Below, piece by piece: positions 2,529-50,434 of a stretch of DNA of 64,000 bases. The DNA is from Candidatus Omnitrophota bacterium. GTDB lineage: Bacteria > Omnitrophota > Omnitrophia > Omnitrophales > Aquincolibacteriaceae. The notes beneath the pieces were generated by a model. The model saw nothing but the letters and a program-made list of their open reading frames with translations. It made no database searches and had not been told where the DNA came from. The stretch is from positions 109,231 to 173,230 of the forward strand of contig DAOPYQ010000005.1 of NCBI GenBank assembly GCA_035352955.1. Direction: 5' to 3'. A program made the position numbers and the translations under genes. The number at the start of each line of letters is the position of its first letter. The first letter of the stretch is position 1.

Positions 2529-5500
2529 TTAAGCCGCCCGCGCGATCGATTCGCGAGCTTTCATTTCAAGGAATTTCTGGACCGCAACGCCCGAGATCAC
2601 AAACCCGCGTCCCGAGGCGTTCATTTCGATCAACTGTTCGATCCCCTGCTGTTCCGAACGGAACAACGCCTTCAAAAGTTCCGCTTTAAGAAGCTCCGGC
2701 TGCCGCAAAAGCTGCGGCTGCCTGGAAATAATATCCGCCAACCGGACCGCCGCGACCACTTCTAGAAGCGCCATATAATCCCGCACCAGCGCATTCCCCG
2801 CCGATTCCCCCGTGATCCTGTAGAAGACCTCGCGGACCATGCTGCCTTTCCCGGAGAAATTCGTCACGAACGGCACGACGGCCTGATCGTTGAGCGGACT
2901 GTACGAACCGTTCGCGGGGATCTGTCTCACGCGAACCCCTTTCGCCAAAAGTTCCGCGGGATTCAATCCGGACAGCCGTCCGCTGATCGCCAATTCATTA
3001 ACGATCGCCCCCCGCGTGTCGATTACTTTCATGAACTGGTTAAGCAGAACCTGCCCACGCTGAACCTCCGCACCCGCCGTCAGATCCAGCCCGATCGCAA
3101 GCCCGCGATCCTTCACATTCTCGAGATTTGCCAAAAGGACTTTTCGTTCCATGGAAATGACCTTCGCCACGGACGGATCGACTGTTTCCGCCATGATGCC
3201 GCTTTTCCCCGTCATCTCCGCGAACGCCGTCGGCACAAAAACATTATTAAAAGCATCCCACAATCTTTTCTCAACCCGCTCGACACCGTCTGAAAGGATC
3301 TCCGCCCTGAAAGCACGAACCGTTTCTACCGCTACTGGTTTCTGTTTTAACACCGTCTCCAGAACTGCGGCATAAACCTGTCTTTTTTCAGCACGCTCAC
3401 GGTCATTTTCCACCGTCGGTCCAACGACCGGCGAACGGACCGGCTCGGGAGTAGCAGCCTGGACAGCGCCGGCGGGGATCTCCCGGACGATCACGGCATC
3501 ATTTCCCTTCCCATGAGAGATCCTCTTTTCAACGACATAGTTTGATTCTGCCCCGGCCAGATCATTTTCAATCCCCTCCAGGCCCTTTTCCCACTTGCCG
3601 GTCAACAAAGTCCCCGCGAAGTAAGCCGCATGCCCCACGATCAAATCATGAGACGAACGAACGAAGGCAAGCTCCACCCGGAAGGTCGATTGCGTCTTTT
3701 TCCGCAACTGGACGATCTCCTCTAGCCGTGCCTTTGCCTGCTGCCTCAGCGACTCGATCTGAGGCACACTGGCCACGTGCGGCATCCGAATTTCGGCGCG
3801 AGAAGGTTTGGCACCCTTTTTTTCCTCAGCAAACGAGGTCTGACCCCTTTTGCTGTTTTCGGCAAGGATCGGCCATGGATTCCGGGCCGGTTCCGCGGGC
3901 ACTTTTTCCCAGGAATCAAGCTTCGGAAGGACCTGCCGGATCGCTTCCACCGGCATATCCGCGGGGATCTCGATCGTGTAATGCACGACCGAAGCCCGCT
4001 GTTGCACTTCCACGGCCTCCGGCCATTCTTTCGTGAGAGCCGCGCACTCTCCCGCATTCAAAACCCGGGACCGGAGGTTTCCGGAAACCGTCCGGGCGTC
4101 CCACCTCAACAAGATCCTCTCCGGCGTAATGTCCAGACGGCAACGGACGGAACGATCCGCCGATTCGATCGCGAGCCGTTCGGCAAGCATCTTCCATCCG
4201 AAGACAGGATCGCTTTCGGGAATCACGTCACCCGCGACACCGGAGCGCTCCAACGCCGTACGCGCCGCCGCGAGCGATTCCGGATAAGGCTTCGCCGGCT
4301 GCAAAAGTGCTTTAGGTTCCGTTAATCCCGTCTTGGGATCGACTTTAAGATGCAGGCTGGACGCCACCATCCGGTTCATCATGTCGGCGCGGACCCGGGT
4401 CCAGTCCATCTGCTCCAACTGGGCCAAGGGCGTCCTGCGGAGTTGATGAATCTCATAGCTCCAGGGCGAGAACTCTCTTCCCACATCCCTGACGCTGGGA
4501 TTCAGCCGCGCGAATTCCGATTCGAGTTCTCTCTCCATCCGGCTGATCTGTCCCTGAGCCGTCAAATACGGCCTGACACTTGATCCAAGATCTTTCAGGG
4601 TCTCCTGACTCTCCCCCAGCAAAACCTTGTTGACCCGTCCCTGGATCTCCTCGGACGAAAGCCAGTGGGAAACGTCTTCTCCCGTCTCTTCGAAGACTTG
4701 CTGCGCTATATCGTGTAGTTTGAAATCGAGCGGTTCATTCGCGATCGCCCGGATCTTGTACAACTCCGGAGGGCTAGGTTCTATTTGATCCGGTTTCGCC
4801 GGATCCATGTTCGCCCAATCCGAGAAATTCAACGCCGCGTCCCGACGCAAGAAAGCAATGTCAGGAGGTTCCATACCCATTTCCTTCGCGCTTTCAACCG
4901 CACACTGGGCTATTTTGTCCCAAGCCGGAAAGACCACGTTGTCGACATAATGCTTTTTAAATTGAACCGGAGTCCATCCGGCCGCTGCGGCGCGTTCGAA
5001 TTCAGCGATAGGATCCATCCTCAAACCGCTCATATCCGCTTCCGCGATCGTCCGAAAGACCGTCTCCCAGAGAGAAACCTGCTCCGGGTGGGTCATGGCG
5101 AGACGGTAGGGAAAGATCATATTCTCGGGCGTAAGCATCGCGTCCACTGCCATCGGGCCGGTCAACCCGGATCCTTTTTGCACAGCAGCGGCGGCAGCCC
5201 GGTATTCCGTATTGATTTGCTGTGTTACAGCATCCTTGAAACTGGAAATAAGACGGACAAGTTCCATTTTCGGGTTACGGGCCGCGACCTCGTCAAATTG
5301 GCGGATCAGCTGTGCGAGGCCCGAGGGCTGCGTCCGTGAAAAAACATTCACGATCGGCGTTTTTCTTGGATCGGAACCCATCGCCTGCATCAAAAGAGAG
5401 CCCAGATTCATGACCGGTCCCAACCCGCTTCCAAGATTTTCAAGGCCCGACGCAAGACTCGCCTCGGTCGCCCCGGCGGGCAACACGTTCGCGGCAGTCG

Positions 5501-8500
5501 CCGCGGCGAGCATCTGCTGCAGAAAATTACGCCTCGGGATCCCAACCCCCTCCCGCATCTCGGAGCGCCGATCTTTCTCTGCCTTGGCATTTTCTTCCTC
5601 TTGCTCGAGAATATTTAAAAAAGGTACCCATCTGGACAATCCTTGTTCGATCCGGTACTTTGAAACATCGAAGCCAAGGACGACGAGTTGCTTCAATAAT
5701 GCAGCCCTCTTTTCGAGGATCTGCGCCTGCATATCGGGATGCGGCCTGCTCATAGACGTCTCATGGAAAAGCCCCACCAAAAATCCCAGGTAAGCGGCCA
5801 GCTCTTCTAAAACCGGTTTCGGGATCACCCGGCTCGAAAGATAAAGCATCATGATTCCGCCATAGCTCAGGGTATCGGCATTGCTCAGAATTTCGATCAC
5901 GGTCCAGGAATAACGCTCGCCGACATGACCGTCCGCAGCGACCACCGCGTATTCGAGCTTCAGATCCTTCAAGAAATTCAACCCCGCCGTCACGAATCCA
6001 TCAGCGAACGCCTTGGCGGTACTGATGTGGAGTTTGCTCCTGACCTTCGCTTTGACGGAAACTTCTCTAGCACCGTCTTCCTCCCGCATCTCCGACCGGC
6101 CGGGGCCGGCAAGAATGGGCCACGGGCTGCGGGCTGTTTCTTCCGGTGTTTTTTTCAATTCCGTCGGTGCCGACGAAATCGACCGAACTTCCGTCTTTTC
6201 AACCGCTCTAAAAACCGGCCGTGCAGGCTTGGCAGAGACCGGCACAAAGCCCTTCGTTTCGCGCGACGCTTTACCGGCATAAAGATCATAGCGCCGGAAA
6301 AGGCTCTTAAGCACTGTCCGTTGGTCGATGGTCAGGTCCGGCGGCGCTTTGAAACTGGACCGGAGTCTTTTGACCACGACCGAGATCTCGAGTTGAGGGT
6401 CCGCCTCGATCTTCGCCAGAAGTTCCGGATTTGAGTCGACCTCTTCGAGGATCGTCCGGATCCGCTCAAAATACGGCCGGCCCATTTCCACGAGCTTCTG
6501 CCGTTTTTGCAGTTCATGCTCGCTCTTGCCAGCCGACGGGACATTTTTCTTGAGGTTCCGGTCATACGCCCGGATCACCTCGACAAGCGACTGAAGAAAA
6601 CCAATATTAATATAAGGTTTATGACGTTTCCGGTAATATTCCAGGCTCTTGTGAGCAATCTCATAGATAACAGACGCCGCCCCGTGCGGCCCGTGCTGCG
6701 CGTATCGGGACTCCATATCCTCAAGGACGCGAACGAATTCCTCGAACCGCTCCGCCATCATCCAAATATTCTCTCCTCTCCTGTCCGTCGCGCTGAACGG
6801 CGGGTGCCATACGCCGCCTTCCCGTCTTTCCGGACGAACTGGACTGGACTTACCGACTACGGACTGTTCCGATATTGATGTTTCGATCTCAGACAGGATA
6901 GCTTCCATTTTTTCTTGAAATTCCAGCGTCGCCTTCTGATAGTTCCGGAACGGCTCCTGCGTTGCGCTGTCCAGTTTATCTTTCACGAACTGCGCCATGA
7001 GCTTCAGTGTAGGTGACGTTTGAAAGCCATCCCCCGAAAGCACCGCGTCAGCCCAAGCTCGAAGCGTTTGCTTCTCCTTCCCGCTCCCGAACTCCTGGTC
7101 CGGGGCAAAGATCATTTCGATCTTTTCTTTAAGTTTGGCCATATCAAAGCGAATATCGCGCAAGCACATTTCTACCGTTTCACGGTCACCGGTTCGCAGG
7201 GAACGAAACAACGTTGCCTGGGCACCGCGAATATACGTCCCGTGACTTTTAAAAAAGTGAACCACACCGTCATCTGCCATGGACTTTCCGACAAGCTTTT
7301 CAAGCTCCTGTAGGAGCGCATCATGGGCTGCAGCGAAAATATCACATTGTTCCAAGACCCGAGTGGCCATCATCCTCAAATTCATCTCCCGCATTTCAGA
7401 TCGGACGTGGTCGTCAGAACCACGCCGAAGCTGTGCCGACGCGCCGCGCTTCTCAGCAGTCCCTGTGGGATTGGGAGTCGATGCGGAGCGGACGGGACCT
7501 TCCTCTGTCCCGCCGCGACTGTACCCAGCTTGACCAAAGCTGGGTGCAGAGCTTCCGGAAGACAAGGAATGAGCTTCGGCCGCCGGCGACCGGATTGAAG
7601 CAACCTCACGAATGCTTTCAAGTTCTCGTTTTAATTTCACAAAGTGGTCGCGTAACGCGAGGATCCAATCACGGTGGTTCTTGAGGATCGAAGCCAACTC
7701 GGCCTGTCCCCTTGGGTCCTTAAGGTAGTCGCATAATTCTCCCGATAGCTTTGAAAACGCCGCCTTTCCGTCAACCTCTTTCTCAAGCGTCTTCAGAAGT
7801 TTTTGCCGCTCAGGATCTTCCCGGAGGAAGGCGTCCAGGAATCGAACGCCCATCCCCATCTCAACGATACCTTTTTCCAAACTCAAGTCGTCGGGCGCAG
7901 GATGTTTTAGCTGCAAGTAAATAGACGAAAGGACATTGCTTACCCCTCCCATCAGCTCACGCCGTAGAGAAGTCTTTTGAAATCTCGCATCGGCAAGGAT
8001 ACCAACCGGATTATCCAAGGCTGCCAGAATGTCCTCCGGCGATCCCCCTTCGGATCTCACGGACACCGGCTGTTCCGGTACCTCCCGCAATTCGGAGCGT
8101 CCTGTCTTCAATTCGTGCGCGGGCGCACGTTTCTCCTCGCGCGCCGATGGCTGCGTTTGAGCGGGATCGCCTCCAATATGCTGGAAATTGAGAGGGATAT
8201 CGCCATAGGATGTTTTCAGACGCTTGGCCCAGTCCGTCTCGCGTGCCCCGAGTACCAGCGTCGCTCCGGTCTGCTTGGCAAAAAGCACAAGCGCCGTTTT
8301 CAGGATCTCCAGGAGGGTGCGATTGGAACCATAAAGATCGTCGACAACAACAACGCTGTTTTTTCCAGCTGCGACAGCGTCGATTGTTCCACTCAAGAAA
8401 TCGAGCACCGCTTGGAAGAAACTAACCCCGGCTCGATCGCTAAGGCCCTCAAAAAGCATGGTGTTGACCTCCGCGGAATCAAACCGGCTCCCCATCTTGA

Positions 8501-11500
8501 TACGCCTTACCGGCACAAAGAAACCGCGCCGGGCCCAAGGGATCGTTTTCTTAAAAAGCTTCAGGACCGCGCGAAGGTCGTCCATATTCTCCGCGGTCAC
8601 GATATTCGCCTCCCCGCCGCGCAGTTTTAATTGAATGACCCTCGGCGACGATTCTCCGGCCTTCGGCGGAAGCTCTGCTTCGATCTCAACGGAGTTTTCG
8701 TCATCGCTTTTTTCGGGCATCGCATAACCCAGCTCCGTGACCGCCAGAGCCACGCCATTCAAGATATCCAGATCGCGCAACGCCTTTTGGCAATTGGATT
8801 TGATCTCATCTGCAAAATAAGGCTCCTCTTCGTCCGGAATTTCTATTTCCGGGAAGAACCGGTTAACACCAAGTTTCTGCGAAATATCGCGAAGATCCTT
8901 CAATCGCTTCAGGATCTCCCTACCATCCGCCAACGATTCGATGGGGGTGGGCCTACGGCTCTGTTTTGAAAGGTCATCTTTTTTAAGTAATATAAAATGG
9001 TCATCTTTTTTGAGCAATGCCATGAACTCCCCGAGCTTGCGACGAAGCTCTTTCATGGCGGGAAGCCCCATTTTTCCCCGGAACGCTTGTACTTGTTCGA
9101 TCAACTCCTTAACCTTGATGTTCCTATAACGCTGGGCCGATAAGTACGCAATCCCGCCGAAAAAGGGGTCCTCGAAAGGCGAACCGAATCTCTCAGGACT
9201 GTAACTGTGAAAAGCAAAGTAACTTTCAGGAATGATCCCGTGGCCATGTAAAAGCGAATAGAATTTCGCGTCCGATTCACCACCGGGATCGAACCGGTTC
9301 CCTTGGGGCCTGATCTCCGGCAACGGCCCGGCTTTTCCGTTTTGCACAAAATCACGAGCCGCATCGAAAATAGCCTGAAACTGTCCGTTATCTTTCAACA
9401 CCTCGCGCGCTTCCAGGATGGAATGATCGCGGACATCCGCATCCCCCGCCTGATAAGGCCCCTTCGTGTAAAAGAATTTCAATTCACCCTGTTTATCAAC
9501 CGAGGTCAGCATTTTTTCCGCTCGGACAGGATTGTCAAATTCCTGCCGAAGCGATCCTTGCGCACTGGGCGCAAGGGCCGCCCGGACCTTCGCAGAAACC
9601 GAAGGATCGGCGAGCAATTGATCGACCGCTTCATGATGATGCGTCGCCGTGATCACGGAAGCACCCATTTCGATCGCTTTTTTGGAGCCTTGAAGAAACG
9701 CTTCTTCCGTCGCAAAAACTTCGTCGTGGATGAATAACGTATTGCGGCTCGCGTTATTGAGCCCGGCATCTTCGCCGGGACCGCGCGCGACAATATCCTC
9801 AAACCAGCTCGTCTCCAGAGGCGAAGGCACATACATCCCGAGACGCGCCATCACGGCGTACAGGGCGGCCCCCTTCAACAGAGTGGATTTCCCGGAGGCG
9901 TTGGGGCCCAACAAAGCCAGGAACGGCTTTTCGTTGGAAAGACGAAGATCATTGGGAACAAGTTCCGCCTTCACTTTAGCCGCATCTTCTCCCCGCTCCT
10001 CACCATCTTTAAGGCCAAGATAGGGATAAGTCAGCTGCGGCGCGTGGAAAGATCCCGGCTCGTCGATAAAAACCGGCCGTTGCCAGTTCTTCCGAACGGC
10101 CAGATCCGCCATGATCCAATAGAAATAAAGCTCGTCCGTGAAATTCTTGAGAAGAACTTCCATATCCGAATCGTTCTCAAGCGGTTCTGCCGCGAGCAGT
10201 TGCCCGAAACGGGTCCTGATGCGTTGATAGGCCGGCCCATCGAGTCCTTGCAGTAGGTTCCGGTTGTCGCGAATAACTTTCAGGACATCTTTCACATGAG
10301 ATTTATATCTGTTGTCAGGGAACTCTTCCCTATGCCTACCATATCTCCGCTTCGCGTTTAGGAACGGACGCGCGAAATAAAGATCTGTCAAAAAAGCCTG
10401 AAAGCGTTCGGAAAATTGCCGGTCAGAGCGGACTTTCCCTGCCATTTCTTCAATGGCGTCCAACCGTTCGAGCACCCGTTCGTGGCCCGGAAGCCGCTCG
10501 CTCGTGAGCATCTCGACATAACGGTAGAACGGATAACGGTATACTACTTCCCAATGTTCGATATCGGGATCGAGCGCTTTGACCCACTTTGAGAATTTGA
10601 TCCCAAGGAACTTCAAGAGACCGGAGGCCACCTTCTTCGCCAAAACAGGCTCGCCCGGTTTCGGGCTTTCCCGCATCTCAGAGCGAACGGTAGAAAGTTC
10701 TGCTGGGGTCTGAAGTTGAGAGATCAGGTCGCGGCTTTCGTAGACTCTATCCTGGCGCCAGACAAGTTCATCCTTGCGCCGATACAATTCCGTTTCCTGC
10801 TTGCGGAGTTCTTCAAGCACTCGCTCCTCGCGTTCCGCGGGATCCGCGCCACCGGCCCATTCCCAGAACCCGCGGTCTTTCAACGTGTAGACGCTGACGC
10901 CGGGCTCTTCAAGAAGCCTGATCCGCTCCCAAAGCGCCGAAAGTTCTTTCGCGAGAGAATCCAGCCCCTGTTTCACCAGTGACTCTTCGCGGTCGAGTTC
11001 TGAATTGAGCTGTTTGGCGTTGAAGGTTTCTCCTCTCTTTGCCCGCTCCTGCAGAGAATGCGGCCAATTCTGCGAGATTTGGAAAAAGCCCATAACCTTA
11101 TCAATAACATCGGGATTTACCTTCGAGAATTCCGCGAACCGTTCTATAGACAGTTCCGGACCGAGCAATCTCTGAACATGCCCGCGCTTTTGAATAAAAG
11201 CTCGAGCATCCCTGAAAATATGCGGTACCATTTCATCAAACAGCCGCCAGTCAAAACGTTGGATCCCAAAATAATCGTCGATCTGTCCCTGAAGTTCATT
11301 CACAAAGTCAAAACTGGCCTCCATGACACCCGGACCCATTCCGGAGAATCTGGAAACAATGTCACCAAGCGAGGCGGGACCGGAGAGCATTCCTTGAAGC
11401 ATGAATCCGCCAAACATCTGCATAAACCCGCGACGGCCCATCATGAGCCTGAGAGAATCCGCGGCAAAATCCTTGAGCCGGAGGATAGAGTCAACCGTCT

Positions 11501-23500: not shown

Positions 23501-26500
23501 CCTCGGGCTGGGCCATTCCGGCCGAGAGGATCTTTTCAGTGCGGGCGCGATAATCTCTCATCATCTCCCGGCCCCGTGGCGTGTGCGCATAGACCTGTTC
23601 GGCCATCTCCATGGTAAGGATTTCGCCGATGATGTCGGCGATCCCCTCAAGCGACTCCTTCTCATGGGACCCTCTAACAAGGACTTTCACAATAGCCCCG
23701 GGGTCCGTGTTCAGATTAACCATTTCGGTGGTTTGTGCGATACCGATCTTTTTATGGGTCACCGGATCGACCAGCTGAACCTCGATGCCCGAAGGAGCGA
23801 ATACTGTTTCCCCAAGTTCTTTCAGCAGACCCGCCGCCGGCGGCATATGCCACCCCTCGGGCCCGACGGTAAAATCCCGCGCGATCTCGCGCTTTTCCGC
23901 GCGATCAGCCCCCGCCCCGGTTTCAAGACCCGGTTTTGACACGAGGGAATCTCGCTTTTCTTTCCGCGTATCCCAAAGATCTTTCGGCCAGAGTTTCAGA
24001 ACGCCCTCTTCCGGAGCCTCAAGGTAAAACCCGTCAGGCATCGTGGGCCAGACTTTTTCAGCCCCCACCATCCGGCGTAACAACCTGCTTACATCCTTCC
24101 TCGCAAAGTTGATCTTTCCGGACGTTCCCACTTGCAGGTTCACGGCCAGCGCCACCATGAGCCCCATCAATTGGGAAGTTTTAGTTTCACGGAAGCCGTA
24201 TAAACCCGCCTTTTCTCCGTTCTGGATCAGGAGCCGGTCGCGGGCGGTCCTCCATTTTTCTGAAAAAACGTCCAGACGCATGACGCTAATATACGGATGT
24301 CTTTCCGCTGCCGGCAACATCACAAGGGGCTTCCCCTCAAATTTCTTACGAAGCCCCGGCGGTAGCACAAGCACCGAATCCTTTGTGAGACGCACGAAAC
24401 CCTCCGTAGCCGGTGCGGCTTCCGGGAGCCGCTGAGACACCGCATCCGGGATCTCCTTGGAAACGGTTGTCTTCGCCGCCAACGATGCCGCTTCTAATTT
24501 TGCCGCAGCCTTCGGATCGATTTCACGGAGCCGGGCAATAAATTCCTCCCGGGTGCCGGGCTCCCCGAGCACCATCCATCCTAAAGCGATCTTTTCCTCA
24601 TCCGACAGCGGTCTCGACGCACGGACCTCCGAGCGGCCGAGCGCCCGGGGGTTTTTCACAGCGGCCAAAGCATTCCCCATCACCGTCTTTTCTTCGAACG
24701 GGACGCCCTGGATGAGGTCCCGGAAATCCCGGAAGAACTTCTGCCCGAGATGCATCATCGAGAACCGCGCGACCTTTCCGCGATAATCGCCGCCCAGGGC
24801 CCACGGCTCATAACGGATCGCGTTCTCGTCCAAAGCCCGTTCCGCCAGGCCGATATGCTTATCCGTCAGAAGCGTCAACGCCCGTCCGACGATCTCACCG
24901 GCCCCATCGTATTGGTAAGTCTTACGGAACTCGAGCCATTCGGTCTGGAGATCGTCCAGGTAACGGGCGTTCTCCGGGTCCGCCTCGAGACCTTTGAGAA
25001 GCGCGGGTCCATTCACATCGCTGACAGGATCACGGCGGTAACCTTTCCCATCGGGATCGCTCCATAATCCGATCCCCGTCCTTATGAACTCCTCTTTTCC
25101 GGTGCGCATGAGGATCTTCAAGGCTTCGGTATCCGTGATCGAAGCGATCCTGCCTTTTCCATCCTTCTTGAACGCCTTGGATTCAAGCCAAAGGAGATAC
25201 CCCTGATCAACGGGATTGGCCGCATAAAGGTTCAGCATCATCATCTCGCGGACGCCCGCGAAATAATCCCGGGGCAATGCCTTGAGGATTCCGAAGACCT
25301 TTTCGAACCTTTCACGGCCCTTCAAATAAGGAATGGCATCCACCGCGGCGCGAAGTTCTTCCGCAAGTCTGAAATAGAATTGCCCGCTTTTCAGGCTGTC
25401 TTGGCCATCTTCCAGGAGACGCGCGACAAGATCCATCGCTCTTTCATCGCCGAGTTCCGCGAGCGCGAGCAGTGCCGGTGGCATGATGGCCGCTTTGTTG
25501 CCGGCATGCCCGTTCAATTCGCTCCCGTCCCAATAAAGGACCGAACGCTGGTAATCCGCGTCAAAATCAACGGCTTTCCAGAGGACTTTCGTCGTCTTCG
25601 CATCCGAGATCCCGGAGATCCCAAGCGCCTCGATGGCTCTCGCCTTGATCCACCAATAGGTCGTCGCCTCCGGACCCGCTAGTTGCAGAAGCCGCTCATA
25701 GATGCGTTTGTCTTTTTTTGCCAGTTGACCGAGGCTTTTCGTGACCGTTTCGCCCAACTCGGCGAATGGCCGGTAAGCATCATCAAAACGCTGTTCTTTA
25801 TCCTGCGCGGCCCGCCATCCGGCGTTGGGGGAAAATCCGAGCAGCTCAAAGAGCCACGGCGCGTACTCCGCAAGCCCTTGCTCCCCCGCCATTTCGGCCG
25901 ACATCTTGATGAGCGGAATGGCCCATTGCACCGCCTGATCGCTGTAATAACTGCGAGAAAGCCCCTTCGGGATGATCTCAAACCAGTCGGAATCGAAGAC
26001 CCCGAACTTGTCCATGCCGTATTCCCTGGAAAGCGGCATGAAGGTCTCGATAATGAACTTCGCGACCTCCGGACGCGCCGGCATCAAAGCGCGGAGAGCG
26101 TAAAGGATCGGATCGCCATGGGCCTCGATGCTCGACATCTCCCGGCACATGAGAAGGAGCCGCATGAGCCGGAGGACCTCTTTGTAGATCTTCTGCCGGG
26201 GGACGGCGGGATTCAGACGCTCGGAGATCTTATCGAGATATTGTCCGAGACGGTTCATCCGGTTCAGGACCATCCGCTCAAGGCCCGCCTGTTTCGCGAT
26301 CTCTTTTTTGGGAAGATGCAGCGTAATGACCGTTCCGGGGACCAGCGTCTTGAAAACCCTGACGACTTGCGCGGAAAGAGGCATAAGTCCCGAGGCGCCC
26401 TCCAACAGCGCCCTTCCCCCCGGGGTCTCGCCTTCCGCTTTACGCGCGTCAAAGGCCTTGCGGCTTTCCCAGGAAATAATATATTTCTCGTGATTGGAAC

Positions 26501-29500
26501 TCCGGATAGCTTCTTCCACTTCGGCGGCCTCCCAAACCCCTGGCACGAACATGTCGATCAGGAACTCATCCTTCTTTTCACGCACGGAAAACTCCGCCTT
26601 ATTGGGAAAGGAATGGCTGACCGGGGAATAACGCTTGAAATAGATCGAGGCCAAGGCCGATACAAGCCCCTCGGTCAGATGGTAGTGGCCCACCGCTCCA
26701 AGCACCATGGTCAGGTCCGCGGATTCGGGGAACGGTCGGTGGACCTTCCCCCAAGTCGGTTCGATCTTGAGGATCCAGTCGAAGGGAGAGGCTTTCAGCG
26801 GGTGCGGATCCATGAAGTTATATTCAACATTCTGATGGAACTCATCGAACTGCTCGCGGAACTTTCTCCAGCAGTAGCCGAACGGGTCCCGCATGAACTC
26901 GTCGTATTCCGCGTACTCGGGATTATCGGGATCAAAAAAATCGTCAAACTCGGGGTTCCCCGTCGGATTGAAATCCGATGTACGCTTCCCCTTGTCGATA
27001 CCCTCACGGTCAAAACGCTCGCGGCGTTCCGGATCTCCCAGGATCTCGTAGGCGCGGGCGGCCTCCTTGAATTTTTCCGCGGCTTCGGCATCCCCGGGAT
27101 GCTTGTCCGGATGATACTGCATGGCTTTAGCACGATAGGCCCTCTTGATATCCGTTGCCGTCGCGTCCCTCGCGACCCCGAGGACCACGTAGGGGTCCCC
27201 CTCCCCGGTCCTCATCTCCGAACGGGCGGTCATGGGTTGGGCGTCGGCTTTCACGATGATGGCGCGGAAATCGTTGGAGTAAACTTTCACCGGTTCTTTA
27301 CTGGCAAAAAGCATTTCGTCCTGAAGAGGCTGCCCCAGCGCCTGCCGCGCCCGATCTTCCGAAGAAATAACTTTCTCGAATGCAAGTTTGGGAGGATGCC
27401 TGAGACTATAGCGATACAACGAAAGTTCCGGCATTCCGAAAACCACCGTCCCCCCTTCACGAAAATTAATCCCGTGATGATAGATCCGGGAAGCGAATCC
27501 TAAACTGATAAGGACAGGTTTGTGCCAGAGGTCTACAAGATCACCTCCGGTAGCTATGATCGCATGGTTCGGATCGACCCCATACCGGCGAAGGAACGCG
27601 TCCACGTCCAGCGCTCTGAACTTAAGCCTCTCGATGGCCTCGCCCTTAATGCTCTCCAGGTCGGAGGTATTGACCGGACCCACGATCCTTCCCGTAAAAC
27701 CCTCCGGCTTGGTACGCCCGATCGAGATCGGGATCCGGCAAAGAACATCTTCTTCCCGGAACTCCGGAAGAGGCTGATAGGTTTTTGAAAAATTCCCCGT
27801 GATCGGCCGGGATTGAACGACGGACAACTCCTCGTCTTTAAAGGCGAATTCCACATCCACGGGAAATCCGAGCGCCTCCTCGATCCCTACGACCACGGTC
27901 CTAAGTTTTTCGATCTCTTCCTTATTCAAAGGAGATAGATGTTTCGTCCTGTTCGCATCGACGATCGCAGACGTATGCTCGTCCCAAGTCTTGTTGATGA
28001 GTTCACGGATTGTCTGATCGGCGAACGAACCTTCTATTCGCAGATCCAATCCGCGCCATTGCATGCCCGCCCGGGGATTATGATTCCGGTCGTAACCTTG
28101 ATAGACCGCTTCGACCTTGCCCGTCTGGCGATCAAGATCGATAATGACATTCCTGCTTCCTGAAACCGCGTACCGTCCCTCGCCCACAACTGCCTCAATC
28201 GCCACATGCCCTTCCAGGTTCGAGAACGCGATCCCGGATTTTTCCGCCCAGATGTAATCCTGAAGAAAAACCGAATAAGCGACATTCTGGTACCGGTCTG
28301 TCACGGTATCGTGGGGCGACTGGAGGCTCGCATGCAAAGCCCAGAACTCCCGTGAGGGATCCGTCTCCCGGCTGATCCCGAAACCCGCCCAGCTCTGTTC
28401 AAAAGAGTCTTCCCCCTGGCGAGAAGAACGCCAGATCCTGAGCCTTCCCAACATCCGGGTCTTTTCGGCCCATGCCTGCCTAAGCTCTAAGGGAAGACTC
28501 TTGTAAAAGAGAAAATTCTCTACAGCATTTATAAAAGCAAGTTCCGCCTGATCAAAGGCAATACCGGATAGCAAGAGATCCTTTTCGTTCTTGCTATTTT
28601 TATACCTGAGAATATCCGGCGTTTCCCGGAGCCCGACAAAGAAATCTGTCCACTCCGCTTCCGTCCCGAAATTCAGGAAGGGTCTAAGATCGGTTTGTAA
28701 GACCCCCCGGATGGCTGAGCGAATTTTAGATTCATCCCCGGCAAGCTCACCGAAGACATCAGCAAAAAGAATGGAGGTCAAGTTTGGAACACCATAGAAT
28801 CCATCCTTCCTCGCTTTTTCAATAAGCCCCTGATTGATCTCTCTTTGTAGTTTTGAAAAGATGGCTCCAGGATTCATGCTTTTGTAACGTTCGTCGATCT
28901 CCCGTAGCAATTTTTCTTCAAAGAGCACGAACTTCGGGATCTTGAAACCGAGTTTTTCCGGAAGTCCCAGTTCCTGAAGAATCAAAAGCCATGCGGCCTT
29001 ACCGCCCCACAGTTTATTCAGTTCCGCGAACCGCGCCTTCACCGCTTCCGGACTCGCCCCTTCTCTCAGTTCCGAACGCGCGGATTCGGTCGATAGCGGA
29101 ATGGCGGCCAACATCGCGATCGTCCGAGTCCCGGGTTTTCCGGGAATATCTCTGCCGAGCCATCTGAGGTTTTCAAGCGTGGCGGCATCCAAAAGGACAG
29201 CCTCCGGAAAACCGTTTTCGATCAATACCCGCGCCACCGTGATCAGCTGGTCCCGGAACTGTGTTTTCTCGGCTTCATTCAAATCGGCACGTAACTTATA
29301 AACTATCGTCATGTTCTGGTCGGGCGCCGATGAGACGAACCCGAAAAGCGTTTTCCAGGAAGAACGTGGATCCCTGATATCAGAATGGGCTCCCACCCCA
29401 TTCATGATCGTCCCAAGATGTAAAACCCCTTCTTCGATCGCAACGTTAAAAAGAAGGCCTCCTCGCGCCACCTCGGCAACCTTGGCGCGAAATTCCGTCG

Positions 29501-32500
29501 CCGTTGCCGGTTTTCCATTGACCACAAAACCATTGACCGAAGACAACCGAAGGCCTTTTTGATCACATGCCGCGCGAATGCGTTCCTGGATACCGGGCAT
29601 CGCCTGTTCGATCTTGGCCCGGATCCCGGCATAAGGCTCGGCCGGCGGCGCGGGATAATCTTTCTCCGTATCAAAATCAAGGCCCGTGCTTCCGAGGATC
29701 AGCTGGATTTTTTTCGGATCGATCCGGAAAGTCTTCTGGATAAATTCACCGTGATGCCGTTGGGCGACCAAAATGAGGTCCGCCCAATCGACAAGTTCCT
29801 GGTCGATCTGTCGGCCTTCGCGGTTACGAAGAACGGGATGCCGTTCCCAGACCGGCGCTCCCAGCCCGAGCCTCGGCCGGACAAGCTGTGCGAGCGTCAT
29901 CTCATCCGCCCGGATCCCGGCGGAACGAACGCTGACTTTATCTTTAAGCTCCGCGGGCAACGCCTGCGCGATCAGATGCGCCGCCAGCGGCGACCGCTCC
30001 CGGTTCGCGTTGCAGACCGTGAGAACATTCAACTTTCCTTTCACGGTTGCGGCTAACGCTTTTTCGATCTCTCCTAATCGAACCTTATTCGTTAACTTCG
30101 CCGGAGTGATCCGCTCTCGCCCGTCTTTTGAATCCCTCCGCAACTCGGAACGGAGGGAGATGCCTTCTGCCCTGGCGATCGTTCTAATCCGGGCATGCAT
30201 AGCCTCCACATCCTTGGACGGCGGAGCCCCATGCTTCTTGCGGGCCCGAGACCTCGGGGCAACAAACCATTCGCCATAATCGGAAAGATCATAAGTCTGT
30301 TCGCGGAGGATCTCCTCCCCAAGGGAGAGAAGCTTCCACCAGGCGCCATCAAACGTTCTCTGAAAAAAATCGACGGCCAAAATATCTTCCGGACTCGTCC
30401 CGGCCAGGATTTTCTGAAGTGTCTCAATCCCGAAAGCGGAAGCTGGGGCTGTAAAAAAATCGCTCTGCCTGAAATGTTCCCCGATCGAACGCGAGATCAA
30501 GGCGTAAACATTTCGCGAGTAATTATCCCCGGGATCATTAAAGGGGGTCCGCGCCACCTTCCCGTTATAATCCGCGATCAGGGCCGCGATCGCGGGAGGA
30601 TCTTCCGCGGCGGCAAGAAAAGCCCTGGCGGCATCCGTTTTCCCCTTTCCCTTCCTGGCCTCCTTGAGAGCCCCCTGAAAGGTCTTTTCGATCTTCCGGA
30701 ACCAGTCATAACGGGCAAAAAACCAGCGCACCGCAAAAATCCGGTGCTCTCTTTGAAGTTCCGCCGTCTTGGTTGCGTAACGCTCAAAAAGCGCTGCCGG
30801 ATTGTCAGCTCCCCCGACATTCAACTCTTCGATCCGCAAGGCCATATCGATCAGACGGGCGAAGGCATCCGGAGACACGTTGAAATCTCCGTCACTCCGG
30901 CCCGCGAACGGACTCAGGGCAAATTCTTTTAAACCGTCCGTGATCATCACGGTCTTCCGATCCTGCTGCTCGCTGTCGGCGCGGACGAAAATCCGTGTCT
31001 GATCGAGCTGAAGACCATAAAAACCGGCGACTTGCTTCCAAGCCTCATCTATTTTCCGGAACCAATGCGCAAGGGACTGCGTTGCTTTCAGAGCATCGGA
31101 TTGGACCATAAACTCATCGAAATCAGTACGGGAGAAAGACGCTCTCGCCTCCCTGCGCACATCGACCCGTTCAAGACTTCGCGGAAGGAAAACTTCTTTG
31201 GGGTTTAGGGGATAGGGTTTAGGGGATAGATCTGTTTTTGCCAAGGTTGCTTTTCTATACCCTATACCCTCCACCCTATCCGCCAAAAAGTTTTCAGGCA
31301 CGCGCGCGCCCTCCCACATCGGAACAGCATACGGCGTCTGGTTGGCCGGTTGGCCGAGGAGCTTCGCGATATGGGCTTCGCTCAATTGACCGTTCTTGCT
31401 GAGAAACTGGAGTTTCCCGATGAACCGCTCAAGTATGGCGCTCCACTTTTCTTTGAGACCCTGGAATTCGGGCGACTGTTCCGCCGCGCACTGATCGATG
31501 TAACGGGTATATTTTGCATGGTCCGCAACGCGGCCCGAGGCGGCAAGATCACGAATCACTTCGTCGCGCCACTCTTTCAGGACCGAGCCACGGGCCACGG
31601 GCCACGGGCCACGACTTGTTTGCACGTCCGTTGCCAGCTTATCGCTCGTGGCGCGAGCGAAGGCGTCATAAAGATCGATCCGGCCGTCGCGCGGGCGGAA
31701 ATATTTCGCCCAGGAAACCTTGCCTCGCATGTGATCGAGATAGCGGCCGTCCTGCGGGACTTCTTTCATCGCGGGAGACACGACCGCGTACGGAATGCCT
31801 TGTGCTTTTAACTTTGACGCGAGGCCTGAGGTGTGGAAGCCGCCGGCAACGAAAATAACGGGGGAAGGATGGAGGATGAAGGATGGAGCTTTCACAAAAC
31901 TTTCGAGCTTGTTTAAAAAAACGGCTTCGCGATTCAGCGCAATTTTGTAGAAATCGAAAAAATCCGCCACGCGCGGTGAGCCTAAAAGAGCATTCATCTT
32001 TTGACTCATTTCACGGATCTCTTGATTTTTCACTCCATCCGCCATCCGCCATCCGCCATCCGGCTGAAAAGACTGCCATTCCTCCCTGCTCAATTCAAAC
32101 TTTATCAGCTTCTCCATGAGCCGTAAGCGCTCGTCCAATTCCGAAACAGCTTTCGCCTCCGCCGTCGTGAAAAGATTGGCCCGCACGGTTGCGAGAAACG
32201 CGTCGAATTCTTTCATGAAGGCCGGGCCTCTGAGATTTACGAGCTTTTCGTGGCGGGCAATTACCTGGGCCAATTGGGGAGAAATTTTGAAAGAACCGTC
32301 ATCCTGAGGCAAAGCCGAAGGATCTCTTTTTTGAGATTCTTCGCCCTTCGGGCTCAGAATGACGGCCTCATTTTTTAAAAACAGCGTTAGCTCGTACGCC
32401 AGCGCGCCTTTACTCATCCGGCCGGTGCGGGAGGCCTGCTTGAGGGCATTGAGCTTTGCCTTTGCGGGTCCGTCCTTCACGGCTTTTTCCGTCTGAATCG

Positions 32501-33437
32501 CCAATGCTTTGATCTCCCGATCGAGTTCCGGGCTCAACCCCTTCTTTTCCTGCTCGATCGTCATGAACAACGCGTTGAGCGTTGCGCCTTGCGCGTTGCG
32601 CCCGGAATACCCCGAAAGATATTCCAGAAAAGCCGTCAACTTGGCGGGATCTGCCTGCCATTCCGAAAACCGCCGGTCGAATTCTAACGCCTCCGCAGAA
32701 TAATATTTTTCCTTCAGCTTTTGCAGTTCCTCTTTGAATTTTGAACTTTGAACATTGAACTCGGCCTGTCGCCCAAGACCGAAAAGGAACGCATGAACGC
32801 CCTCCTCGTAAAGCCTCCAGTCCTCGATCCCGACGAATTCGGCTTTCCCCTGCATGAGCACGCTCGCCGCGGCCACCCCGGAAAGTTCGCCGGTCGCGAG
32901 ATAATCGTCAAAGACCGCCTTGCGTTTTTCCGCGTCGGGGAACATCCGGAAAAGCGTCGGGTCAAGCTTCCCTTCCGCGCCTTCCAAAGCGACGGTCCCG
33001 ACGCCGTATTTTTCCTGGAAATATTCGATCAGCTTCGCGAGGGAGCGTTGGGCGTCCGGGATCGAATGGGCATCTTGAATTAAAATTACAAACTTCCCGG
33101 ATGAAGGAGGAAGGATGACGGATGACGAAAAACCGCTCTTAAATTTACCATCATTTGACATCCTCTTTCCGACATCCATTTCCTGGATGGTTCCCAGTTC
33201 GGGAGGGACGACAAGCTCCTGCACATTTCCGCGTGAAGCGGAGGCCGAGGCAAGAAGGCTGGTGTCGTTCCCTCCCTGAACATGGGAGACATTGATCGAT
33301 TGGGCGAGTCCTTGTGCGGGAAAAGAAAGCAGGTCCGAGCAGAGAAAAGCCATCACCGTGAGCACACTAATGGCCCTTATTTTAAACGAAAAGCTGGAAG
33401 GAAAACTCCTCTTGTGTAGAGATGTTTTTGGGTTCAT
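2529..33437 (-). CDS. giant 10,302-aa secreted or membrane multi-domain protein (mosaic of enzymatic domains)
   Basis: Single uninterrupted ORF of 30,909 bp in the six-frame track. N-terminus [47 protein letters not shown] is a Sec-type signal peptide. Several domains are recognisable from sequence and are listed as separate features. Domain positions were checked against the DNA at five anchor points and the residue count closes exactly at 10,302. Stop TAA at 2529-2531. Confidence 0.85.
5457..5534 (-). other. internal twin-arginine (Tat)-like signal motif (aa 9302-9327), directly after an RSEMRE linker
   Basis: [37 protein letters not shown] has RRxFL, then an Ala-rich hydrophobic stretch, then an AxA-like site. 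This is a textbook Tat leader architecture, but it lies ~9,300 residues into the ORF. Confidence 0.35.
7386..7436. repeat. 51-bp intragenic repeat copy B, encoding linker [17 protein letters not shown] (aa 8668-8684)
   Basis: See copy A. Further peptide-level copies of RSEMRE/RSEMRT start at aa 2072 (before the J-domain), 7585, 9115 and 9291, at roughly nt 27210-27227, 10668-10685, 6078-6131 and 5550-5567. Confidence 0.8.
9603..9950 (-). other. MutS domain-V-like ABC ATPase (aa ~7830-7945)
   Basis: [45 protein letters not shown]...[38 protein letters not shown] aligns with the MutS Walker A region (ITGPNMGGKSTYMRQ.AL..LMA.IGSYVPA) and the THYFEL region. The Walker B / signature segment is degenerate. 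DNA check: LALLGPNAS at ~9880-9917. Confidence 0.55.
11745..11795. repeat. 51-bp intragenic repeat copy A, encoding linker [17 protein letters not shown] (aa 7215-7231)
   Basis: Plus strand catctcggatcggacgtggtcatcaggaccacgccgaagctgtgccgacgc versus copy B catttcagatcggacgtggtcgtcagaaccacgccgaagctgtgccgacgc. About 46 of 51 nt are identical, while the flanking DNA is unrelated. Confidence 0.8.
14628..14807 (-). other. internal transmembrane hairpin (two predicted TM helices, aa ~6211-6270)
   Basis: [27 protein letters not shown] and [26 protein letters not shown] are two ~22-residue hydrophobic stretches inside an otherwise hydrophilic protein. Confidence 0.5.
18633..19940 (-). other. two RidA/YjgF (endoribonuclease L-PSP)-like domains (aa ~4501-4599 and ~4830-4934)
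   Basis: C-terminal signatures ...[51 protein letters not shown] and ...[53 protein letters not shown] resemble the RidA PAR..V.V..LP....VEIE.IA motif. Confidence 0.45.
20688..21650 (-). other. family-2 glycosyltransferase (DPM1/GtrB-like) domain with an internal insertion (aa ~3930-4250)
   Basis: [17 protein letters not shown]...[16 protein letters not shown]...[14 protein letters not shown]...DAAIGSRW gives the typical GT2 fold signatures (DDGS-like and DxD motifs). Confidence 0.6.
21993..22244 (-). other. HPr-like phosphocarrier domain (aa ~3732-3815), directly C-terminal to the GHKL ATPase
   Basis: [81 protein letters not shown] aligns with E. coli HPr ([27 protein letters not shown]...KSASAKSLFKLQTLGL..G..V.ISAEGEDEQKAVEHLVKLM). 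The active-site His (H15 equivalent, in DIHIRPS) and the Ser46-region serines are present. Confidence 0.6.
22353..22760 (-). other. GHKL / HATPase_c histidine-kinase-like ATPase domain (aa ~3560-3695)
   Basis: [27 protein letters not shown]...[38 protein letters not shown] shows the G1 (DxGxG), G2 (GGxGLGL-like) and G3 (GTG) boxes. Checked on DNA at 22380-22382. Confidence 0.65.
26997..27197 (-). other. DnaJ J-domain (aa 2081-2147), preceded by linker ARSEMRT
   Basis: [66 protein letters not shown] carries the HPD motif and aligns with E. coli DnaJ residues 4-68. DNA check: gacccctacgtg at 27186-27197. Confidence 0.8.
27408..28226 (-). other. PEP-utilising / pyruvate phosphate dikinase N-terminal (PPDK_N) ATP-grasp-like domain (aa ~1738-2010)
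   Basis: [21 protein letters not shown] resembles the PPDK_N / PEP synthase nucleotide-binding motif (DIEWAI..GKLYILQARPET). The segment after it, [17 protein letters not shown]...[13 protein letters not shown], weakly resembles a mobile domain but lacks the canonical GGxTSHAAI phospho-His motif. Confidence 0.5.
29538..30035 (-). other. low-molecular-weight protein tyrosine phosphatase domain (giant protein aa ~1135-1300)
   Basis: P-loop [21 protein letters not shown] matches the LMW-PTP CX5R(S/T) signature V-C-x-x-N-x-x-R-S. The C codon was checked on the DNA at 30012-30014. Confidence 0.7.
31588..31613. repeat. heptanucleotide tandem repeat (ccacggg x3.7) inside the 5' part of the giant CDS
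   Basis: Plus strand gccacgggccacgggccacgggccacg. The sense strand encodes RGPWPVARG (aa ~608-616). The 21-nt core keeps the frame, but a +/-1 unit change would shift it. Confidence 0.6.
32035..32062. repeat. heptanucleotide tandem repeat (ccatccg x4) inside the 5' part of the giant CDS
   Basis: Plus strand ccatccgccatccgccatccgccatccgg. The sense strand ggatggcggatggcggatggcggatgga encodes [10 protein letters not shown] (aa ~459-468). Confidence 0.6.
33303..33437 (-). other. predicted Sec signal peptide of giant protein (aa 1-45)
   Basis: Basic n-region (KR), hydrophobic core [12 protein letters not shown], then AQGLA|QS, which looks like a signal-peptidase site. Confidence 0.55.
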
Positions 33438-33605
33438 TTGCCTCGGCCTGGCGTTTATTTTTTAATACTTATGAAAAGGTAACATATATGCGCCAATTCG
33501 CAAGGCCTGTAGAGGGAAAAATACGGTTTTTTCGATGAAAATTCGCGATTTTTTTGCGGAAAAAATCTGCTAGAAAACGCTATAAGATGCTTTCGGAAGG
33601 CGGCG
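33438..33605 (-). promoter_or_regulatory. AT-rich intergenic region upstream of the giant gene (putative promoter and RBS)
   Basis: 168 bp between the uvrC stop and the giant-gene ATG. It is AT-rich (tattaaaaaataaacgcc on the sense strand) and has GAGG 3-4 nt before the ATG. No convincing -35/-10 pair could be placed by eye. Confidence 0.3.
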
Positions 33606-35105: not shown

Positions 35106-35126
35106 CCTTCATCCTCCATCCGGTTT

Positions 35127-50201: not shown

Positions 50202-50220
50202 ATTTTTTAAATCCCCCGGA

Positions 50221-50309
50221 TCGACTCCCGACCGTAGCCATAAACGCTTTTCTTGATCGTCATGGCGTTGTACCGAATTCTTGGAATTCAGTGCGAGAGG
50301 AGGGAGTCG
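50221..50309. repeat. 89-bp direct repeat copy B (includes a duplicate of the last 18 nt of tRNA-Leu)
   Basis: tcgactcccgaccgtagccataaacgcttttcttgatcgtcatggcgttgtaccgaattcttggaattcagtgcgagaggagggagtcg versus copy A at 50477..50565: 84/89 identical. Confidence 0.7.
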
Positions 50310-50434
50310 GCGCCTTCCGCTCACTTTGTTTCGCTTCAGGTCGGCACTGACACCCCATTAAATTTGAATGGATTGTTAGTGCCGTCCCAACAATCCCTTA
50401 AAAATAATTGTCGGTTGGGGCGGCCACCCGCGCT

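Follow-up and report, generated by a model that had tools for sequence, protein, structure and literature searches.

Open reading frames (ORFs) of more than 20 kb occur in most classes of the phylum Omnitrophota; they show little conservation, carry few annotations, and have no clear role (Seymour et al. 2023, PMC10066038). Giant proteins of the phylum reach 85,804 amino acids (aa) and have PPDK_N, HATPase_c, and HEAT_2 among their domains; C39 or S8 domains were suggested to carry out autoproteolysis, with the cleavage points stated to be unknown (West-Roberts et al. 2023, bioRxiv 10.1101/2023.11.21.568195). Subsequently, thousands of proteins of at least 10,000 aa were cataloged and a "multi-enzyme" class (class 1) was defined; 94% have a signal peptide or transmembrane (TM) helices, 80% of the sequence clusters are singletons, 46% of long Omnitrophota proteins are TM-only, and proteins of at least 10,000 aa average 22 TM helices (Nielsen & Lui 2026, bioRxiv 10.64898/2026.06.07.730766). 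For the 39,678-aa protein of V. archaeovorus, an extracellular coat has been proposed. Here, we analyzed a 64,000-nt stretch of DNA from an uncultured Omnitrophota bacterium (hereafter, the window; assembly GCA_035352955.1, contig DAOPYQ010000005.1, positions 109,231 to 173,230) that carries a gene for a 10,302-aa protein (hereafter, the giant). Comparison with its relatives places the giant in a family characterized by a conserved N-terminal head, a conserved C-terminal tail, and a linker pentapeptide, R-[S/A]-E-x-R, that recurs along the cargo between them.

The giant is a further member of the described multi-enzyme class. It comes from the same phylum, is a single ORF of at least 10,000 aa with many Pfam families and no dominant one, shares PPDK_N, HATPase_c, and HEAT_2, has a signal peptide and few TM segments, and consists mostly of unannotated sequence that is poorly conserved between genomes. 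Hence, the novelty implied by a preliminary description of this DNA, made from the sequence alone, is not supported, since multi-enzyme giants that combine a signal peptide with TM segments and include these three domains had already been described for the phylum. Another Omnitrophota ORF of at least 10,000 aa is not news in itself: thousands (~5,800) are cataloged, and the present sequence is already in public metagenome-assembled genomes (MAGs). The giant differs from described ones in that it lacks, at a Pfam E-value of ≤1, the divergent SecA_DEAD domain found in most (though not obligatorily all) of those of at least 30,000 aa; it also lacks C39 and S8 domains. Type II secretion or pilus genes, which are frequent but not obligatory near described giants, are absent from the window; comEC and an AAA_22 gene are the only ones there with even a loose relation to them. 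Conserved head and tail domains, the R-[S/A]-E-x-R motif, and cysteine depletion are mentioned in neither West-Roberts et al. 2023 nor Nielsen & Lui 2026, and these features of the family seem to be undescribed. Together, the head, the tail, the linker pentapeptide, and a near-absence of cysteine unite hundreds of otherwise unalignable large proteins as one family.

Outside the phylum, the MARTX toxins of Vibrio resemble the giant in working logic only, being secreted giant chains of unrelated effector modules and linkers in which a protease domain of the chain itself (putative in the giant) sets the modules free. They differ in type I secretion (C-terminal signal, rtxBDE), in Gly-rich A/B/C repeats at both ends, and in an InsP6-activated C80 cysteine protease (CPD) that cleaves after Leu. 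Viral and eukaryotic polyproteins likewise hold many units in one chain, with a short linker motif at the borders and a protease (in the giant, a candidate) in the chain; they are cut at these sites by the embedded protease, whereas cutting of the giant is a prediction. Giant adhesins (Ebh, SiiE, LapA/Bap) are comparable in size range and export but consist of one or two domain types repeated in tandem, whereas the giant is essentially repeat-free. Ebh provides a precedent for the Sec export of a chain of ~10,000 aa. To our knowledge, and from a search of the literature, no bacterial Sec-exported polyprotein with a defined cleavage motif has been described.

Results

A family with a conserved head and tail

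The giant gene and the conserved parts of its product lie at the following window positions:

2529..33437, minus strand: giant ORF, 10,302 aa plus stop codon (ORF listing, translation, codon analysis)
33303..33437, minus strand: Sec-type signal peptide, residues 1–45 (basic n-region, hydrophobic residues 22–41, G-L-A↓Q-S site)
31338..33215, minus strand: conserved family head, residues ~75–700, ~630 residues (homology, AlphaFold model, conserved residues)
2532..3140, minus strand: conserved family tail, residues 10100–10302, ending ...IARAA-COOH

A search with residues 1–1100 of the giant returned nine homologs, and BLAST limited the common part to residues 1–~750. P0002 and P0003 are positional orthologs of the giant, as they share its murJ-uvrC context, and they diverge downstream of the head, where a MarC-like membrane domain and a FabD-like region are found. 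A metagenome scan with the head alignment revealed 274 loci or more, 80 of which were kept for ORF analysis. The head-bearing ORFs were nearly always huge: complete ones mostly ranged from 1,412 to 3,542 aa, and at least 17 were still open after 3,950 to 4,045 aa at the edge of the retrieved flank, so that the family spans from about 1,400 aa up to the 10,302 aa of the giant. The cargo of the 12 members scanned was different in each, and no domain was seen in more than two of them (PdxA, patatin, inositol monophosphatase, PCMT, HATPase_c, methyltransferases, sugar transferases, PALP, NUDIX, MBL, HAD, transglutaminase, and others). The closest relatives have a few additional blocks in common with the giant, part of them collinear and part rearranged.

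The other end of the protein is conserved as well, with the last ~200 residues alignable across the family and 20 of the 26 complete family ORFs ending in [AS]A-COOH. A tail hidden Markov model (HMM) built without the giant matched its residues 10100–10302 at model positions 14–215 of 215 (E-value of 4e-21), ending at the stop codon; the tail profile found no relative in the PDB. The family plan is, from the N to the C terminus, a predicted signal peptide, a conserved head, hypervariable unrelated modules, and a conserved tail ending in Ala-Ala. In one relative (P0001), the head gene is directly followed by a separate gene of at least 2,602 aa.

Residues invariant among nine head sequences are H124, E152, R503, and G532-G-F-H535, which belong to the family signature QDAH...EGA...R...GGFH. 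The AlphaFold model of the head has a predicted local distance difference test score (pLDDT) of 72.6, and a Foldseek search of the PDB with the head ranked the Tiki/TraB/ChaN/erythromycin-esterase families first, although not significantly. PF04187 (ChaN/Tiki) matches the head of one of the nine homologs (E-value of 0.0065) and does not match the head of the giant itself, and the head profile had no match among PDB sequences. The order H124, E152, R503, H535 is probably that of this superfamily, which is characterized by paired xxxH motifs plus a conserved Glu and Arg, and the four are candidate equivalents of its catalytic residues. Compared with the Tiki/TraB/PrgY/GumN/ChaN/erythromycin-esterase superfamily, the head has a helical insertion of ~340 residues, and its first motif is QDAH, not GxxH. 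On these grounds, a Tiki/TraB/ChaN/erythromycin-esterase-like fold with a long helical insertion is likely for the head, though not established; its activity may be that of a protease, an esterase, or a ligand-binding protein.

A pentapeptide marks module borders

The pentapeptide R-[S/A]-E-x-R (hereafter, the mark) was found at the following positions of the giant:

30138..30152, minus strand: RSELR, residue 1096
29064..29078, minus strand: RSELR, residue 1454, at the start of the PPDK_N-like module (~1460)
27210..27224, minus strand: RSEMR, residue 2072, between the PPDK_N-like module and the J-domain
24621..24635, minus strand: RSEVR, residue 2935
23889..23903, minus strand: RAEKR, residue 3179, just before HPr-like domain 1
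22323..22337, minus strand: RSELR, residue 3701, between GHKL and HPr-like domain 2
20070..20084, minus strand: RAEIR, residue 4452
18159..18173, minus strand: RAELR, residue 5089
16950..16964, minus strand: RAEVR, residue 5492
13233..13247, minus strand: RAERR, residue 6731
12423..12437, minus strand: RAERR, residue 7001
11748..11762, minus strand: RSEMR, residue 7226
10671..10685, minus strand: RSEMR, residue 7585
8085..8099, minus strand: RSELR, residue 8447
7389..7403, minus strand: RSEMR, residue 8679
6084..6098, minus strand: RSEMR, residue 9114
5553..5567, minus strand: RSEMR, residue 9291
3786..3800, minus strand: RAEIR, residue 9880
3381..3395, minus strand: RAEKR, residue 10015

Specifically, R-[S/A]-E-x-R occurs 19 times in the giant, compared with 0.78 ± 0.93 times (maximum of 6) in shuffled sequences, and the RSExR form occurs 11 times, compared with a shuffled mean of 0.53 (maximum of 3). 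Across the family (79 ORFs plus the giant), 260 RSExR sites were observed versus 5.3 expected (49-fold) and 105 RAExR sites versus 7.2 expected. The near variants KSExR, RSExK, RSDxR, and RSQxR stayed at or near expectation in the family, and a chance or compositional origin of the motif was rejected on this ground. At the x position V, L, M, or A predominates, and conservation does not extend beyond the pentapeptide.

The placement of the marks follows the modules. None of the 19 lies within a recognized domain of the giant, several (1454, 2072, 3179, and 3701) coincide with module borders set independently by homology, those at 6731 and 7001 bracket a block common to the giant and one relative (L096), and the two copies of an unnamed module (beginning at residues 1299 and 4271) both end in a mark. 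Outside the head, 26% of the homology-block ends fall within 10 aa of a mark, compared with 4.7% of random positions. The median spacing between marks is 274 aa, i.e., domain-sized, and their flanks are less hydrophobic (P = 1e-33) and richer in Pro/Gly/Ser (P = 6e-13) than random positions, as expected of flexible linkers. The motif thereby offers rational borders for module-wise structure prediction of the ~75% of the chain that is dark sequence.

The codons of the marks vary synonymously, indicating that selection acts on the peptide; for this reason, the idea that the motif is a recombination signal at the DNA level was rejected. Separately, the serine of the 11 RSExR sites in the giant is always encoded by TCN and never by AGY (0 of 11, versus 28% AGY in the ORF). 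The only common alternative to this serine is alanine (GCN), which is one base away, consistent with free interchange of Ser and Ala.

The marks are largely restricted to head-bearing proteins. No motif was found in the 8,317 aa of window neighbor proteins or in ~17,000 aa of large mosaic proteins without the head, and its density is 1.78 per 1000 aa in head-bearing ORFs versus 0.23 in other ORFs of the same loci, where the sites are mostly confined to a few further large ORFs. In L143, L146, L099, L122, and L098, large ORFs without the head (860 to 3,300 aa) that contain two to seven marks adjoin the head-bearing gene, and the head-bearing ORF of L143 itself has zero marks. This arrangement may point to trans processing or to family members whose architecture has been split.

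The giant gene is intact

From its ATG start codon, the giant reads through 10,302 codons (30.9 kb) with zero internal stops in the ORF listing and translation, while the remaining two minus-strand frames over the same interval contain 27 to 54 stops per 1000 codons. For a frame of this size, ~360 stops would be expected by chance, and their complete absence indicates that the frame is under selection and native to the genome. Frame 0 had the top score in every 1000-codon window under a codon table from neighboring genes, and the GC content at codon positions 1/2/3 is 0.61/0.41/0.64 in the giant versus 0.58/0.40/0.68 in the neighbors. The strongest argument that the ORF is meant to yield a single product is that one frame joins the family head to the family tail across 30.9 kb. 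Thus, the gene for the giant is real, intact, and chromosomal, and its bearer is an uncultured Omnitrophota bacterium.

The locus is also present in JGI metagenome 3300010352 (Ga0116247_10000081, 178 kb), in NCBI assemblies GCA_964411105.1 (160 kb) and GCA_035403665.1 (35 kb), and in a 177,948-bp NCBI Third Party Annotation (TPA) contig. Over the retrievable parts that were compared, it is 100% identical across Ga0116247_10000081, CAYPJP010000004.1, and DAONFQ010000020.1, and two gene calls list the 10,302-aa product. These assemblies are short-read metagenomes that may derive from the same reads, which makes them weak as independent evidence. The preliminary description had presented a single stop-free, nonrepetitive 30.9-kb ORF with a signal peptide, and translation, codon signal, self-BLAST, and hydropathy all bear this out; splitting of the ORF, which it had named as grounds for rejection, was not seen in the assemblies compared. 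Scans for promoters and terminators at both gene ends yielded nothing useful.

Self-BLAST of 300-aa tiles revealed a single 35-aa duplicate and otherwise no internal repeats. The two copies (window 11748–11822 and 7389–7490; residues 7206–7231 and 8650–8684) share SAQLRRG[PS] and each end in a mark, which suggests a recent linker duplication. In a strain variant (L083, an ENA contig), the overlap with window positions 32989–35975 contains 23 differences and no indels; the differences spare uvrC and the giant's first 149 codons, and all are in the murJ end of the overlap.

Cargo modules

Pfam and NCBIfam scans, run first on overlapping tiles and afterward on single segments, assigned ~25% of the chain to recognized domains and left ~75% with no recognizable family. 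About 10 distinct families are present, each once or twice, with none dominant. The modules of the giant are as follows:

29568..30041, minus strand: LMW (low-molecular-weight) phosphotyrosine phosphatase-like domain (LMW-PTP), residues 1133–1290 (Pfam, 29.6 bits, above the gathering threshold [GA]; C1142-X5-R-S intact)
29079..29543, minus strand: unnamed module, residues 1299–1453 (also in P0034 and P0037)
27225..29063, minus strand: PPDK_N-like ATP-grasp module of ~610 aa, residues 1459–2071 (Pfam and homology)
27003..27203, minus strand: J-domain, residues 2079–2145 (canonical, HPD at 2109)
25551..25748, minus strand: HEAT-like repeats (weak), residues 2564–2629 (domain scans)
23628..23861, minus strand: HPr-like domain 1 (weak), residues 3193–3270 (GWHMPPAA, His site kept)
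22359..22703, minus strand: GHKL (HATPase_c) ATPase, residues 3579–3693 (domain scans)
21993..22247, minus strand: HPr-like domain 2, residues 3731–3815 (IHIRPS, His site kept)
20781..21152, minus strand: GT2-like (AglJ/DPM-type) glycosyltransferase region, residues 4096–4219 (NCBIfam E-value of 1.3e-5, Pfam E-value of 0.03, below curated cut-offs)
20085–20627, minus strand: weak second copy of the unnamed module, residues 4271–4451 (homology)
18639..19271, minus strand: FkbO/chorismatase-like tandem RidA (YjgF) fold, residues 4723–4933 (domain scans)
9618..10109, minus strand: MutS domain V-like ABC ATPase, residues 7777–7940 (below Pfam GA)

The MutS-like ATPase has a Walker A motif (GPNASGKST), an HDE Walker-B-like (DE) motif, and TATHHHE, and the GT2-like region falls in the block of the giant that is best conserved with one relative (L091). 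Residues 5094–7589 and 8452–10099 matched no family in Pfam or NCBIfam, and a homolog search with residues 5000–6500 returned no hit at an E-value of ≤1e-5. Similarly, an exhaustive search with residues 1100–2299 found no protein spanning more than one module, and the ~610-aa ATP-grasp module was found alone and within other large mosaic proteins. One of the large mosaic proteins, the 5,057-aa P0013, has neither head nor motif but opens with a signal peptide and has ...FAEAA as its C terminus; judging from this sequence, the Ala-Ala C terminus may be wider than the head-cargo-tail family.

These scans confirm most of the domains first proposed for the giant (LMW-PTP, PPDK_N-like, J-domain, GHKL, the HPr-like pair, and tandem RidA), while its TM hairpin is a call from hydropathy only and its GT2 and MutS matches stay below curated cut-offs. 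The weight that had been placed on the exact domain order is not justified: cargo is hypervariable in the family, so a unique order is expected and not meaningful. In another assembly (GCA_029261035.1, locus L085), a stand-alone 148-aa LMW-PTP gene (6189–6635, minus strand) lies divergently beside a 1,558-aa head-family gene (6856–11532, plus strand). With LMW-PTP beside the head gene in L085 and fused after the head in the giant, this looks like a gene-fusion link.

Predicted export

Signal peptide and TM calls were made by hydropathy heuristics. A signal-peptide-like start is present in all nine head homologs, and the closest ones keep the A-x-A↓Q site. In the giant, the first 21 residues contain five Lys/Arg and one His ahead of the hydrophobic segment, with acidic or neutral residues after it, so that the positive-inside rule would place the bulk of the chain outside. 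No TM segment was predicted between the head and residue 6209, and the hydrophobic segments beyond that point are as follows:

14634..14813, minus strand: candidate TM hairpin, two hydrophobic segments, residues 6209–6268 (hydropathy only)
12846..12917, minus strand: further hydrophobic segment, residues 6841–6864 (three charged residues, doubtful as a TM segment)

Since the segment at 6209 is a predicted hairpin, the chain would keep its membrane side.

Cysteine makes up 0.22% of the giant compared with 1.0% of its neighbors; several head-family relatives of 2.6 to 4 thousand aa contain zero cysteine, and the family as a whole is nearly cysteine-free. Such depletion is typical of proteins that cross the envelope unfolded, e.g., autotransporter passengers and type I and type III substrates, and we take it as compositional support for export of the giant family. 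A stand-alone copy of the ATP-grasp module (P0012, 650 aa) has its own signal- or lipoprotein-like N terminus (...FLCQGITFAKDCS), so a nominally cytoplasmic PPDK_N-like module seems, from its sequence, to be exported alone in another organism. No type I secretion genes are present near the giant within the window.

Discussion

Our preferred reading, which we hold tentatively and just short of an even call, is that the giant is a Sec-exported polyprotein that is cut at the R-[S/A]-E-x-R marks and whose modules act on a partner or prey cell. The chain would be exported via Sec into the cell envelope, with its lack of cysteine keeping it disulfide-free during the crossing, and would then be cut at the marks, the likeliest cutting agent being the Tiki/TraB-like head, working either in cis or in trans. 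About 20 separate modules would thereby be set free or put on display, namely the phosphatase, the ATP-grasp module, the J-domain, the GHKL ATPase plus two HPr-like domains, the GT2-like, FkbO-like, and MutS-like ATPase modules, and many others whose fold is unknown. These modules may act on or inside the partner or prey cell to which these host-dependent bacteria attach. Sec export is suggested by the combination of the conserved signal peptide, the positive-inside rule, and cysteine depletion; cutting is suggested because a strict short linker motif at module borders co-occurs with the head of a protease-containing superfamily; and action on a partner cell is suggested by the lifestyle proposed for the phylum, together with the need of the ATP-dependent modules for a cytoplasm. 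The preliminary description had offered a multi-effector or toolbox protein for cell-cell interaction as one possible reading; the linker motif and the protease-like head make a MARTX-like logic, i.e., a processed multi-module protein, more plausible than that description could anticipate. A fuller version, in which the motif is a cleavage code, the head is its dedicated protease, and the tail with its Ala-Ala end completes a cassette for arbitrary modules, such that ~20 proteins are matured outside the cytoplasm for use against host or prey, is possible but doubtful. If this version is correct, it would give the giant proteins of Omnitrophota their first defined processing rule and bacteria a new way of delivering many proteins in a single export event. 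The motif in any case gives a testable cut-site candidate for the question raised in the literature of whether giants persist as one chain or are cut.

Several points weigh against the polyprotein reading. Both cleavage and export are deduced indirectly. The ATP-grasp, GHKL, ABC-ATPase, and J-domain modules depend on ATP or Hsp70, and neither is available outside a cytoplasm. Many members of the Tiki/TraB/ChaN superfamily are esterases or haem binders rather than proteases, and AlphaFold modeling of the tail (four sequences) reached a pLDDT of 39. Alanine replaces serine in 8 of the 19 marks, and so the serine is not an essential nucleophile or modification site. In some relatives, the motif lies 9 residues from the C terminus, which fits common-end processing and docking equally. 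Finally, the giant has only two or three hydrophobic segments, compared with the mean of 22 TM helices in cataloged Omnitrophota proteins of at least 10,000 aa.

The main rival to cleavage is a chain that is exported but remains uncut. The giant would then be an envelope coat or scaffold, a ~1.1-MDa chain tethered to the surface, with the motif serving as a hinge, a sorting tag, or a docking site for, e.g., the head, the tail, or a wall polymer and the modules working next to one another on the attached host cell's surface. We regard this as a real but less than probable explanation. The coat proposed for the V. archaeovorus protein provides a parallel, the flanks of the marks are linker-like, the near-terminal motif of some relatives is explained by docking as easily as by cutting, and Ser/Ala interchange within a strict R..E..R pattern suits a salt-bridge recognition motif. 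However, an uncut coat leaves the protease-like head that invariably accompanies the motif unexplained and would hold ATP-dependent modules on the cell surface with no substrate supply.

Alternatively, the giant could be a cytoplasmic, membrane-tethered multi-enzyme assembly (a fused operon or metabolon) for which the N-terminal segment is an anchor only. ATP-grasp, GHKL, MutS-like ATPase, J-domain, HPr-like, and LMW-PTP domains are all normally cytoplasmic, the LMW-PTP gene beside the head-family gene in L085 suggests fusion of neighbors, TM segments right behind the head in some relatives could place their tails inside, and nearly half of long Omnitrophota proteins are TM-only (the 46% of Nielsen & Lui, bioRxiv 10.64898/2026.06.07.730766). 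Yet the N-terminal charge distribution, under the positive-inside rule, puts the bulk of the chain outside and no TM segment precedes residue 6209, where the predicted segment is a hairpin, which together make a cytoplasmic metabolon less likely. Nor does such an assembly account for the A-x-A-type signal peptidase site kept in close homologs, for the strong cysteine depletion relative to cytoplasmic neighbors, or for the stand-alone ATP-grasp copy (P0012) with its own signal peptide. Overall, we consider it unlikely.

That the ORF is an assembly chimera, a decaying gene, or a set of ordinary genes fused by sequencing errors is very improbable. The shared short-read origin of the assemblies, possibly from the same reads, and the relative with a separate gene behind its head gene (P0001) could be read in this way, but the ~360 stops expected by chance are missing, the codon signal is uniform, the family head and tail share one frame with the motif grammar along its whole length, the four assemblies are identical where comparable, and relatives have ORFs of at least 4,000 aa. 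Least probable of all is a known type of giant toxin, adhesin, or megasynthase (MARTX, other RTX, Bap/SiiE-type, or nonribosomal peptide synthetase/polyketide synthase), since Pfam and NCBIfam detected no Gly-rich/RTX repeats, no C80 protease (CPD) domain, and no condensation, adenylation, carrier, or ketosynthase domains, tandem repeats are absent, the export signal is of the N-terminal Sec type instead of the C-terminal type I kind, and genes for type I secretion are absent nearby, so that MARTX toxins, which the preliminary description had offered as a conceptual analog, do not include the giant as a member.

Host and gene neighborhood

The giant gene sits between uvrC and metH, and its window neighbors are housekeeping genes on the same strand. 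Downstream lies metH; upstream are uvrC, murJ, holA, lptE, a gene for a BamD-like tetratricopeptide repeat (TPR) protein, comEC, and leuS, and the window also contains mnmA, mscL, rsmH, and two tRNAs. The minus-strand frame open from position 2361 to the window edge encodes the methionine synthase MetH (787 aa seen). A plus-strand ORF of 406 aa (1048–2268) was rejected as a gene, as it has no Pfam hit and is an antisense shadow of metH.

The Omnitrophota link, made in the preliminary description, is corroborated by the NCBI proteins identical to UvrC, MnmA, LptE, and ChbG of the window, which carry the label Candidatus Omnitrophota, and by the relatives of UvrC, as among the best 120 (63–79% identity; several submitters) every labeled one is Omnitrophota or Omnitrophica. 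LeuRS, encoded by leuS (window 47718–50324, minus strand), is closest to MAGs labeled Verrucomicrobia/Verrucomicrobiia (72% identity); two unlabeled MAGs match it at 78–82%, and none of its best 80 genome hits carries an Omnitrophota label. As a pointer to Verrucomicrobiota as the host, LeuRS is overruled by the exact-protein labels and the UvrC relatives, and the conflict could reflect horizontal transfer of leuS or inconsistent MAG labeling.

Two further genes of the window deserve mention. The one at 53465–54034 (minus strand) encodes a 189-aa protein in which a bactofilin domain is joined, unusually, to a C-terminal HTH_17 DNA-binding domain. A GH35/GH42-like gene, called as the longest ORF at 45680–48085, overlaps leuS (47718–50324) by 368 bases; its Pfam domain begins at residue 132, and its true start is probably just downstream of leuS.

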